Positions 1,575 through 63,195 of a stretch of DNA of 64,000 nt are shown here, one piece after another. The notes beneath the pieces were generated by a model. It made no database searches and was not told where the DNA came from. It saw nothing but the letters and a program-made list of their open reading frames with translations. Positions within the stretch are counted from its first letter, which is position 1. The number at the start of each line of letters is the position of its first letter. This DNA comes from Mobula hypostoma (taxonomy: Eukaryota): the NCBI RefSeq assembly GCF_963921235.1, contig NC_086108.1:79486001-79550000 (forward strand), written 5' to 3'. The position numbers and the translations under genes were made by a program.

Positions 1575-2306
1575 AGATTCTGAAGATGCTGGAAGTCTTG
1601 AGCAACACCCAAAATACTAGGGGAGCTCAGTGGATCAGGCAGCATCTATGGAGGGGAAGCAATCAAAGTTTCAAGCCGAGACCACTCATCATGACTGAAA
1701 AGGAAGAGGGCAGCGTCCAGAGTAAGAACGTGGGTGAGGGAAAGGATTACAAACTGGCAGGTAATTCGTGAGACCAGGTGAAGGGGATGAACTAAGAAGC
1801 TGGGAGGGGATTGGCCAAAGAGGCAAAGGGCTGAAGAAGGATGAATCTAATAGGAGAGGGCGTAAACCATGGAAGAAAGGGAAGGAGGAGGGGAACCAGA
1901 GGGAATGATTGACAGGTGGGAATAGAAAGGATGAGAAGGTAACCAGAATAGGAAATGGAAAAAGAGAGAAGAAGGGAGGGAGGAGAAATTAATGGAAGTA
2001 GGAGGATTTGATGTTCATGCCATCAGGTTTGAATATGAGGTGTTGCTCCTTCAACCCAAGTTTGGTCTCATCATGGTAATAGACGAGGCCGTGGTCAGAC
2101 GTGCGAGAATGGGAATGCGAGATTGAATTGAAATGGATATCCATGGGGAGATTCTGCCTTCGTAGCTGACAGAATGAAGGTGCTCGACAAACCAGTCCCC
2201 CAGTCTGTGTCAGATCTCACCGATGTAGAGAAGGCCACATCAGGATACAGTAGATGACTTTGACAGACTTGCAGCTGAAGTGTTGCCTCACCTGAAAGGA
2301 CTGTTG
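1575..2306 (-). mobile_element. Penelope-like element 3' part (endonuclease remnant, 3' UTR, degenerate hammerhead at about 1660-1700)
   Basis: Reverse-complement homolog of 4763-5937 (aaaggactgtt, tgttgctcc, ggcagcatctatgg). Confidence 0.75.
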
Positions 2307-4762
2307 ACTTGAACTAGAGAATAGTTGTGGTGTATCGACGTGATCTAAACACAATGAGTTAATCAGGTTACTTTAAGAAAATGCTCAACTTTCTTAATAA
2401 ATTTTCTGTTGTCACCAACCCGAACATATTGAATAAACTGCCATATGACAGGAACAATTCAGCCAAGTACCCACTTTAGCACAAATTAAAAGCTTTGTTT
2501 GTTACATATGGTAAAATTACCATGAGAAATGCTACAAAATAAGAAATTCTGTTTGATTCAAAATTCAGTCGCACGGTTTTATTTATTTTGATACTGTGCT
2601 TTCGAAGTTGGGCTTTTCATGCAGTGAAACATACTGGAAAAACATTTTTCAGATTGTCTCACCTTACTTTAAAAGTTCAACAAAGCACTCAAAGGTGTGA
2701 GCTTCATTTTCACATGTATGCTGATTTTAAAAGCATAAGAAATGAAAGCAGGAAGAGCTCGCATTGCTTGTTGAGTTACTCCAACTTTCAGTAAGATCAT
2801 GGCTGATCTGATCTTGATCTTGAATTCAAATCCATGTTCTTGCCTCTTCCTCATAAGCATTGAACCCCTATTGGTCCAAATATACATTTGATTTTGGCCT
2901 TGAATATAGTCTTGGTATGTGACTTCTGTATCATTGGCATATCAGATGACAGCATTGTTTATGATGTACCACTAATGTCTGTTGCTTTGCAAACTATGGC
3001 ATGTTTTTTGTTGTATGGCTTGAAATTTGAACTCTAAGTAATTCCTATCATTTAGCTCCTCAATTACCAATTCCCAAATTTATCACCAGGCCTCGAACCG
3101 CTGGCTCCCTGTACACCCCAGTCCCCCGAATGCCATATTTGGATATCTGGGCAGCACAAAGGAAATATGAAATGGAGATTCATTAACAGGCTCATACCTA
3201 CCACTAAACAACGGTTGGTAAGCAAGTAGTTCACTCAACGCATTCCTTTCTCGGCCTCTACAAGATAACACTACTGTCATTAATCATCTCTGTCTCTAAC
3301 TCATTTTGAGAAACGGCACAGGAGATTCAGTATTAGATATTTATTTTCTAAAATAGATTTCTGCAAAATTTGAGGTGTGATGCAGTTTTGATGCTCCCTC
3401 TGCTTCGACCACAGTTAAATGTTCACTTTGCATAGTGGAACTTCCTGAAGATACAATGTTAGACTGTGGAGTTAGAGAAGCTGCCTATTTGAAGTTACTG
3501 ATTGCATTCCCTACAGTAGCAATATTGAGATAATGGAGTGTTCAGAATTTTTATAAACCTGTTTCAGTACCTTCGCTGATGATTGGCAAATGAAACGGAA
3601 GGCAACATTGAGGAAGATGGAAATGCACTGCCCTGAAAGGATATGCTGTCATCTTGTATATCAGTATTAAGCAATGTACCATATTTTATTAACATAGATT
3701 ATTTGAACATCAAATTTCTGTGTGTCAGTGTTTGCTCTGCACAAATTAGCTACTGTGTTTTCTCATTATAGCAGCGGCTGCTTTTCAAAAATACCACAAA
3801 CCCTATGTTTTATGAGAGTAACAAAGGTATTGTATTAATGTAAGCAATGTTTTTGGGATATTCCCCCGATGCTTTTTAAGTGCATACTTTACTAAATCCT
3901 GACTTCTTATGGATGTGGGATGGGTTCAGACTGTCCCTTTAGTTTTTCTACTATTCATTGAGCCTGTGGCCAACCCTTGGAGATCTTCAGATTTGGGTGA
4001 GAACCTCAGCATTTTAAAAGGGCTGCAGGGATTCTTGTTCTAGAATAGACTTTTTATCCCTGTTCTTCTATTCAATGACATGCGTACACAGATTAAAAAC
4101 AGGATACTCAGCAGATCAGGCAGTATCTTTGGAGAAAGAAGTAAGACTTCTGATGAAGAATTGTTGTCATTTTAACTGTTTTCTTCTTCTAAATCTGTTA
4201 CCTAATCTGGTTGGGAATTACATTCAATTATTTTATGAACACTTCCCATTGATCATTTCTCATAATTTTTGTCTTGTATATTTGCATAAATAACATTTAT
4301 TTGTACCAGTACACTATTATACCTTTCTAAACTGAAGGTTTGTATGCATTTGTCCTGGTTCAACTTTTCATCTTTTAGTTTTCCCTTTATACATAGCTCC
4401 TAAAATACATTCCTGATTGTTATTCTTCCTCCTTTCTCTTCATAGGCTTTAGATGTAAACATAAAGACTTTCCACCTTCCATCAAGCACCCAGCTCTACA
4501 TCGTAGTTGAAAACTGTTATAGCAATCCGAGTTAGGTTTTGCCAAAATCTAGTCTCAGGACTGTTCAGGTGGATTCAGGTGGATTCAGCTGGATTAGAAA
4601 ATGTCTGGATTTTAATCCAGTTATGTCTTTTGCTTCTTACTTAGAATTCTGTATCTTTCCATATCGATCTGTGTTTTGCTAAAACACCAAATCAGTATGA
4701 AACGCACTGTCAGTATTTGGCTGTTATGTTTCTGTATTTTTATCATTGAAGGTACTTCGACA

Positions 4763-5937
4763 GTAGGAAATAGGATTAAGGGCCCCAAACAGTCCTTCCA
4801 GCTGAGGTAACGCTTCACCTGCAAGTCTGTTGGAGTTGTCTATTGTATCTGGCGCTTCGGATGCGGCCCCCTCTATATTGGTGATACCTGGTGTAAATTG
4901 GGGGTCCACTTTGTTGAATACATCCGCTCCATCCGCCTAAAATGGAATTTACCTGTGGCCAATCATTTTAATTCCTATTGCCGTTCCTGTTCCAACATGT
5001 CGGTCCATGGCATGCACTTTTGCCATGATGACAGACATCCCGCGTCTCCCAGAAGTTCTGGGAGTCTCCCGCATATAAATAGTGGCTCCCTGATGCCTGC
5101 AAATTATATACAATATCATAGAAATCAATTTTTTTGAGAGCGAGAGAGAGAGAGAGAGAGAGAGAGAGAGAGAGCATGAGAGAGCGGCCACGAGAGAGTG
5201 TTCCAAAAAAAAGAAAATATAAAACGTACGTCACCCCAAACTACACTAAAGTGTACCCCTGCCTAATAGGGGTCAAAAATAATGACAGTGTTGCTCGCTG
5301 CACTGTTTGCAACAGTGACTTTTCTATTGCCCATGGTGGGTTAAGACTGTAAAAGACATGTTGAGGTGAGTTTAACAGGTGTCATTCATTCATCAGCATG
5401 GCTAATGTTATTTAAACTAGCTGGCTAGCTGCTAAGGAGCTACTCTATTGCAGAAATCCCATCTCCCCCAGAAGTTCCGGGAGTCTCCTGCAAATTGATG
5501 GTGTTACCTCCCTGAAATAAGTTTTTGCAGGGTGGGATGTCTGTGTCTCTCAGAGTGGAGGAGCAACACGTCGTATTCTGTCTAGGTAGCCTCCAACCTG
5601 ATTGCTCCTTCCAGTAATTTTTCCTTTCCCTTCCCTCTCCTATTTCTGCATTCTGGCTTCTCCTGTCCCTGGTGCCCCTCCTTCTTCCCTTTCTCCCATG
5701 GTCCACTCTTGTCTCCTATCAGATTTCTTCTTCTCCAGCTCCTTAGCTTTCTCACCCACCGAGCTTCACCCATCACCTTTCAGCTAGTCCTCCTTCCTCA
5801 GGATGACACTTTTTTATTCTGGCATCTTCCACCTTCATTTCTGGTCCTGAAGGAAGGCCTTGGCCTGAAACATTGACTATTTAGTCTACTCCATAGATGC
5901 TTTTACCAGCTGAGTTCCTCCAGCATTTTGTGTGTAT
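4763..5937 (+). mobile_element. Penelope-like retroelement GIY-YIG endonuclease and 3' region, interrupted by a hAT-like MITE
   Basis: Translates GPKQSFQ..RFTCKSVGVVYCI...GPLYIGDT...HFVEY...PVANHFNS (VVY...YIG = GIY-YIG) and resumes after 5543 with RVEEQH..F.LGSLQP. Pyrimidine-rich UTR and degenerate hammerhead at about 5843-5880. Confidence 0.8.
5032..5543 (+). mobile_element. hAT-like non-autonomous DNA element, copy 1
   Basis: TIRs CAGACATCCC...GGGATGTCTG, an (AG)n tract, and a zinc-finger fragment CTVCNSDFSIAHGG; near-identical to 18090-18641. Confidence 0.8.
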
Positions 5938-62350: not shown

Positions 62351-62964
62351 AAAGGATGATCTTGGTAACAAATCTTTTCAGATCTGATTTCTAGGATCTT
62401 CCCTGGGAGTTTTGCTTTCCTCAGCAGTATTTATAGCCCTTCAATTAGTTAAAAATGGTAGCTCCCTGAGAAAAAAAATACCTCTATAATAAAATTGTAC
62501 TTTATATGGTGACTTATGAAAAGAATCTTTATTTTTGAGTTGCAGTTATTTTAGACCCTTTTCATACTGTCGGTGCTGATACTGATTTTAATTCACCTGC
62601 TAACAGTGACTGTGTTGAACATGCTAAACACTTGACCGTAAGTGGACTGCAACTCAAGAGTGCTGGCCCTATCTGTTTTTTGCTTGACACCTAGAGGAGT
62701 CCAGTTTGCTTCAGAAGTCAGTGTTACATTCAGGAATAGAAACTCGGTCTATTTTCTTACTGTTCCTTAGCACAGAGGTCAGTTGTGTTGTTATTCCCTC
62801 CTCTCCCTCTATACCACACCTCCGTAAAGAAAGCCCAAAACAAGGCTGGTTTATGGTCATGTGCACAAGTGCAGTGAGGTACCGACACGATGAAGGCTTG
62901 CTTGCAGTAGCATCACAGTCACATAGATACAAATGCTGCACAGAACATAATTATACCATACATA

Positions 62965-63195
62965 TCAGCACACACTAAATGCTGGAGGTGAGCAGGTGAG
63001 GCAGCACTTGAATAAATAGTCAGCGTTTCAGGCCAAGACCCTTCTTCAGAACTGGAAAGGAAGGAGGAAGAGGCCAGAACAAAAAAGGTAGGGGGAGGGG
63101 AAGAAGGATCGCTGGAAGGTGATGGGTGAAGCCAGGTTGAGTGGGAAAGGTAAAGAGCTGGAGAAGAAGGAATATGATAGGAGAGGGGAGTGGGT
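62965..63195 (-). mobile_element. PLE 3' UTR with hammerhead mutated at the cleavage triplet
   Basis: rc reads cagttCTGAAGAagggtcttggcctGAAACgctgact (GCT instead of NUH). Confidence 0.7.

Follow-up and report, generated by a model that had tools for sequence, protein, structure and literature searches.

Junctions of an abundant Penelope-like element in the ray Mobula hypostoma, and what its minimal hammerheads may contribute to its copying

Minimal hammerhead ribozymes are described from the pseudo-long terminal repeats (pLTRs) of metazoan Penelope-like elements (PLEs), including the fish elements Xena, Poseidon and Neptune; they are of type I, with an extra base after A9, a palindrome at positions 15.2-16.2 and no loop 3, and occur once per pLTR, mostly solo, with some close pairs on opposite strands (PMC4209133). 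What they do, and how pLTR tandems arise anew, are described as open questions in the literature (PMC8557442, PMC2377424). The family described here shares all the traits named above. Eleven of its copies lie in a window of 64,000 nucleotides of Mobula hypostoma (NC_086108.1, positions 79,486,001 to 79,550,000, forward strand), in introns of the gene ZSWIM5. With a probability of roughly 0.78, these sites are 5'-truncated, mostly decayed pLTR insertions of one abundant PLE, likely Neptune, whose hammerhead, if it cuts at all, probably does so solely when dimerised or accompanied by the element protein, in the element's own RNA and not in the host intron. As such the sites are ordinary, PLE minimal hammerheads being published and most copies in the window being dead; the remaining interest is what the junctions tell about PLE copying. 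A young family with intact frames and many inserts makes both open questions approachable, via genomic junctions and RNA ends.

The PLE origin, proposed in a preliminary description made from the letters of the window, is borne out by full-length elements, which carry the same motif in both pLTRs and an open reading frame (ORF) for reverse transcriptase (RT) and GIY-YIG endonuclease (EN) between them. The reference copy (L171), reached by walking upstream from exact motif matches in the genome, consists of a 5' pLTR, a 1043-codon open frame and a 3' pLTR, with two identical hammerheads 3,512 bp apart, and thus a unit of ~3.5 kb; the hammerhead is present in both pLTRs of this copy and of most of 20 further full-length loci, and the 1043-codon frame is kept in 11 of the 21. 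The protein shows the motifs GxxF, DKG and YIDD, a CX4CX2C linker and, at its C terminus, a GIY-YIG domain; Pfam matches it to RVT_1 (E 1e-4) and GIY-YIG (E 3e-3), both under the curated cut-offs. A C-terminal GIY-YIG with two core cysteines and a CX2-5CxxC linker are shared with EN-bearing PLEs of the Neptune and Nematis type, and since this linker between RT and EN marks Neptune and Nematis (PMC8557442), while the PLE clades reported from vertebrates are Neptune and Poseidon (bioRxiv 10.64898/2026.07.22.740005), the element is, by its protein sequence, likely a Neptune-type PLE. The inserts agree with the same group in having partial tandems, an inverted 5'-truncated arm and a one-sided tail of 30-40 bp (PMC8557442), and they also show target duplication; the bias towards microsatellite targets described there is not evident here, by inspection and with no formal test made. 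At two loci (L333 and L335) the insertion exceeds two tandem units and contains three hammerheads; between full units, 6 and 14 of 3,452 bases differ. As a side observation, two ray gene models (P0002 and P0007), named as a divergent kinase and a chitinase-domain protein, are mostly made of the PLE's ORF, which reflects either exonisation or annotation error.

The features first noted for the motif are borne out: it is a minimal hammerhead of type I that carries one extra A and whose helix III is a palindrome. The core (CUGANGA, GAAA and UH) and stems I and II are present in full-length copies and subfamily majorities; the extra base after A9 is A in 87 of 90 sampled copies, and positions 15.2-16.2 read ACGU, without a loop 3. 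Stem II is short, with 3-4 bp against 7-8 in Schistosoma (PMC4209133). Position 11.1, where a G10.1-C11.1 pair is expected of the class, is C in 38/90 and U in 46/90 sampled copies; the youngest subfamily differs from the minimal hammerheads described in PMC4209133 in its G10.1-U11.1 pair (G-U). The consensus given in the preliminary description, with cagtc as the 5' strand of stem I, is right for the older subfamilies; the young, most numerous one has tagtc, and reads CTGACGA with U at 11.1. Subfamily majorities vary at N7, loop 2 and 11.1 and keep the core apart from CpG decay. As a possible sign of selection on the core after insertion, the core differs at 8.7% and the tail at 12.8% of positions among 62 old copies (p 0.009), but with subfamilies pooled and with unequal composition. 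When the young motif is folded in silico, stems I and II are supported, with pair probabilities of 0.87-0.97, yet a core-burying hairpin that spans exactly -4 to +31, counted from C3, is favoured (-11.2 vs -6.8 kcal/mol); for two motifs the double hammerhead gives -11.1 and an inactive duplex -30.7. The catalytic letters sit in the competing hairpin, and cleavage is predicted to be weak or assisted, as has been reported for PLE minimal hammerheads (PMC4209133; PMC11167929).

The motif could also be a near-vestigial passenger or a protein-binding fold, the element spreading without any need for cleavage, which seems doubtful to us. An older sub-lineage (L342-L353) amplified with the core variant A6C (10/62 old sampled copies; 25 exact genome matches), a change reported with low activity (PMC3088659); ends of inserts are not in excess at the cut site (see below); insertion in vitro is unimpaired by catalytic mutants (PMC11167929), and Naiad PLEs are described without the motif (PMC8557442). 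However, all other subfamily majorities retain the core apart from CpG decay, and so do distant PLEs with 26-37% protein identity. In 7 of 13 such loci (10 of which hold at least 300 nt behind the match) the core is accompanied by wholly different, still-pairing stems and a longer palindrome in helix III, in four distinct motifs; the seven carriers (L311, L312, L315-L318, L320) come from metagenome contigs, and stem II, its pairing read by eye, is opened by a U-U pair in six of them.

In the window, all eleven sites align as one repeat on the strands first assigned to them (six plus, five minus; Table 1), and their intronic location is confirmed by the exons of ZSWIM5, the start of the first intron falling outside the window; rays and sharks supply the nearest named relatives, both for the ZSWIM5 exon and for the protein of the element. 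A strict core-plus-stems pattern has three matches, whereas 200 dinucleotide shuffles average 0.005 and never exceed 1. Three copies only (18832, 50499 and 58259, named by their C3) retain both stems and every letter of the core, each of them with a flaw, so that none is perfect; seven copies have a broken core and one lacks C3. The name of a very large ribozyme family therefore suits the family itself and is too strong for the window, where 8 of 11 copies are broken. All copies there are passengers, mostly dead ones. The Rfam hammerhead scan that had been suggested as a check is blind to the motif, yielding four chance matches in the window at E<=1 and no hammerhead among them. The reported GIY-YIG remnant is real: tblastn with the full-length ORF finds it at 4775-5032 and 5543-5602, on either side of an unrelated insertion of ~510 bp, although Pfam, applied to this piece alone, gives no domain match. 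Further matches to the element protein lie at 1995-2291, 7529-7723, 52936-53533 and 55836-55934, and those at 7529-7723 and 55836-55934, together with 31598-31663 and 49787-49865, are family pieces without an intact ribozyme. The insertion that splits the endonuclease remnant belongs to a repeat with two copies, 87% alike (5032-5543 and 18090-18641), which with its short inverted ends and cysteine-rich reading frame is DNA-transposon-like by eye.

The family is indeed as large as was supposed. The young 34-base hammerhead has 36,060 exact matches in the genome, the variant first described 1,021, and a 33-base tail word 57,460, each with none for the reversed control. In a sample of 93 evenly spaced 10-kb stretches on 17 large contigs of the 3.48-Gb genome there are 175 profile matches in 930 kb (reversed 0), so that the earlier guess of about one copy per 6 kb holds genome-wide; 107 of these cover the ribozyme, 40 retain the core and 18 are wholly intact. 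Extrapolation gives ~654,000 ends (531,000-777,000) and ~67,000 structurally intact hammerheads (37,000-101,000). This scale exceeds the counts in PMC4209133, where descriptor matches number ~4,000 in coelacanth and ~9,000 in Xenopus, as against 36,060 letter-identical copies here, the two being counted by different methods. The family is thus a new, very large member of a published kind. Shark or skate terms are absent from the one searched supplement file of that study, its supplement file 1 being outside the search; a literature search, with subscription journals and Repbase outside its coverage, found nothing devoted to this family as it occurs in rays, nor to the accumulation of 5' ends at the ribozyme that is described below.

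Copies are as dense in the window as they are on average in the genome, and this, together with the near-even division of strands, bears on whether the intronic copies might cut or regulate the ZSWIM5 pre-mRNA. Two whole-core copies (18832 and 50499) are sense to the gene, but they lie 31.7 kb apart and are both flawed, and monomers of this class of hammerhead did not cleave (PMC4209133); an effect on the host transcript is therefore very improbable.

The ends of inserts were analysed in the first 100 places where the tail word matches the genome; all of them lie on contig 1 and belong to one young subfamily. Their 3' ends are bimodal behind the ribozyme, falling at +82..+102 (class A) or +122..+141 (class B). 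Target duplications of 11-17 bp flank many of the 55 shortest arms examined; the short ends are thus genuine separate insertions. Of the short inverted inserts, 36 are distinct; every one consists of one A arm and one B arm, and no junction recurs among them. The two end classes and their pairing match the PLE Poseidon of the lizard Anolis, for which two internal start sites, by which the tail is set, and cutting of both strands have been shown in vitro (PMC11167929); by its linker Poseidon is of a different clade. In the ray, the element protein would correspondingly nick both target strands and prime one cDNA at A and one at B, and the two would then be joined head to head, or one of them lost. 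A simple fold-back origin of the inverted inserts was rejected, the shorter arm sometimes having the longer 3' end and every short pair being A+B; the A+B rule likewise argues against self-priming on antisense RNA, by which head-to-head inserts are explained in PMC3846280, for the short inserts.

The four main haplotypes of the family are common to short (11/8/5/5) and long (15/14/6/14) copies, two gapped rows being omitted. This bears on the suggestion in the preliminary description that short ribozyme-bearing ends also spread on their own, as a non-autonomous family with its own source copies resembling short interspersed elements (SINEs) or retrozymes. Such ends are abundant, are flanked by target duplications and frequently start near one position, and non-LTR retrozymes, known in vertebrates and found in the sole cartilaginous fish sampled, are likewise pLTR-derived and non-coding and carry a type I hammerhead (bioRxiv 10.64898/2026.07.22.740005). 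However, these are tandem repeats with at least two complete ribozymes, whereas each copy in the window stands solo or in a head-to-head pair, and the repeats there include no tandem array of short units; moreover, the 5' ends are spread over 20 nt, and the short ends show neither a lineage of their own nor recurring ends. Because the haplotypes are shared with long copies and no junction recurs, the short copies are products of the full element and not a SINE-like lineage, and independent spread is improbable.

A further feature is where the copies begin. Of the 85 arms that reach +9 (one duplicated row dropped; the arms of one insert counted separately, and 5' ends placed by alignment, with a blur of a few bases), 29 stop within -10..+9, at 0.0197 per nt as compared with 0.0025 upstream (7.9-fold, p 3e-12). 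The pile-up at the ribozyme edge does not appear in the passages on EN-bearing PLEs consulted in PMC8557442. The zone of the cut site (+28..+37) shows no excess of ends over its surroundings (0.0041 vs 0.0040 per nt), and the cut site was thus rejected as what sets the 5' ends; in Anolis Poseidon, too, where the template is uncut RNA, no read ends lie at the cut site (PMC11167929). The ORF of that element begins inside the ribozyme (PMC11167929), while here the frame opens ~85-165 nt behind C3. Long copies behave differently: of 30 loci with the start of the ORF, 26 extend to the 5' ribozyme and only one stops there (p 0.002), namely L341 (G000:C76:21267241-21272441), the sole full-length copy that starts exactly at -4 of the 5' ribozyme. 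Correspondingly, in 88 head-to-head junctions the partners of long arms stop at the ribozyme edge in 1/70, and those of edge-stopping arms are equally short in 40/46.

These start positions indicate that the element is likely copied from two kinds of RNA, a matter on which the available text of PMC11167929 is silent. The short copies would come from the same source elements as the long ones, by run-off copying of a short, uncut RNA whose 5' end lies at about -4, in the first bases of stem I; long and tandem copies would come from RNA without an end at the ribozyme edge, either a circle closed at the ribozyme, as already proposed in PMC4209133, or a strand jump between terminal repeats, which fit the long copies equally well. 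Tandem units differ at 133 of 21,194 bases within an insertion (0.63%; 13 of these from an unrelated older fragment) vs 1.44% between insertions, and those of a single insertion share locus-private alleles; tandems therefore stem from one template sequence, not from unrelated neighbours. Recurrent unit-specific differences, which a diverged linear tandem source would be expected to leave, number four in the tandems, two at CpG and two elsewhere, one row being the unrelated older fragment; a young linear tandem source is a further possible origin. More tentatively, and with the odds against the scheme as a whole, an uncut RNA from the first base of the hammerhead would give strong-stop-like inserts of 90-140 bp (about a third of young copies), and a second RNA that lacks this end, in the simplest case a circle of unit length that the paired hammerheads cut and close, would give long copies and copies of more than one unit, with a regenerated pLTR. 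If true, PLE hammerheads would have a definite task, and the origin of tandems would be explained, in a family that has intact frames and identical ribozymes by the tens of thousands.

Several points weigh against these readings. The 100 anchored copies, being the first matches on a single contig, represent one young subfamily, their 5' ends are blurred by a few bases, and the arms of a single insert count as separate; the 26 long loci include the query locus and two that are counted twice. Arm lengths correlate generally, so that part of the short-short pairing may reflect two enzymes stopping together. A plain promoter at -4, where there is a word that we take to be initiator-like, predicts many full-length copies starting there, and is weakened by the finding of only one in 26. 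The CX4CX2C linker fits Nematis as well as Neptune. Finally, the evidence consists of assembled contigs, and RNA ends, circle and cleavage stand as predictions made from them.

Instead of an RNA end, the stop at the edge might mark a roadblock: the ribozyme that the enzyme meets first after priming would be held by the element protein or a partner RNA, and copying would often fail there. The stop position is identical for A-primed (17) and B-primed (12) arms, the limits of the predicted hairpin are exactly -4 and +31, in some inserts the one arm stops at the edge and the other reaches -26 or -51, and the anole ribozyme cleaves only when the protein is present (PMC11167929). Yet the partners of long arms likewise run into a first ribozyme of their own and stop there only once in 70. 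A structure would be expected to halt the enzyme at the 3' foot of a helix, where no excess of ends is seen. A roadblock is thus possible, though we would not bet on it. A splice acceptor was also considered, as a pyrimidine tract and AG precede helix I, and the Penelope of D. virilis has an internal promoter and an intron (PMC2377424) that ends at helix I (PMC4209133); it is not supported, because 0 of 188 ribozyme starts are joined to a GT donor of the element and several short inserts directly abut their target duplication.

Table 1. Copies of the element and the ZSWIM5 exons in the window
Positions	Strand	Hammerhead C3	Feature	Remarks
1575..2305	-	1692	old 5'-truncated PLE end: GIY-YIG remnant (1995-2291), 3' untranslated region (UTR), hammerhead, tail	C3->A
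4775..5032	+		linker/GIY-YIG remnant, residues 900-986 of 1016-aa frame	tblastn E 7e-24
5543..5935	+	5847	same PLE copy past the 510-bp insertion: endonuclease end, 3'UTR, hammerhead, tail	A9->G
9328..9500	+	9409	head-to-head short insert	C3 lost at inversion junction; ~12-bp target duplication, by eye
10597..10788	-	10729	old pLTR end	C3->U
18819..18958	+	18832	short pLTR end, whole core; sense to ZSWIM5	C-A mismatch in stem I
24219..24314	+	24222	short pLTR end beginning at -3	stem II and H17 affected by deletions
31598..31663	-		tail-only piece without ribozyme	absent from the preliminary description
32830..33180	+		exon of the host gene ZSWIM5, borders approximate	following exon at ~63487-63642 (+)
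50467..50592	+	50499	young-subfamily short copy, whole core; sense to ZSWIM5	GUU triplet and U-G wobble; ~15-bp target duplication, by eye
52646..52744	-	52738	young-subfamily short copy beginning at ~-6	G8->A
52936..53960	+	53838	old copy with internal deletion: parts of the ORF (residues 262-365), 3'UTR, hammerhead, tail	G12->A
58217..58333	-	58259	head-to-head short insert; minus arm with whole core	A-C mismatch in stem I, at inversion junction; ~15-bp target duplication, by eye
62960..63193	-	63049	old pLTR end	U16.1->C

The copy that begins at 24219 lies inside a stretch on the minus strand (22274-25433) with broken frames that by eye resemble the protease, RT, RNase H and integrase of an LTR retrotransposon. 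The window further contains a dispersed repeat of ~690 bp (11201-11888, 42640-43235 and 60544-61227), of which 11201-11888 and 60549-61227 are inverted and 88% alike, as well as fragments resembling long interspersed elements (LINEs) at 23076-23582, 39203-39975 and 45442-46258, the last two forming an inverted pair ~5.5 kb apart.

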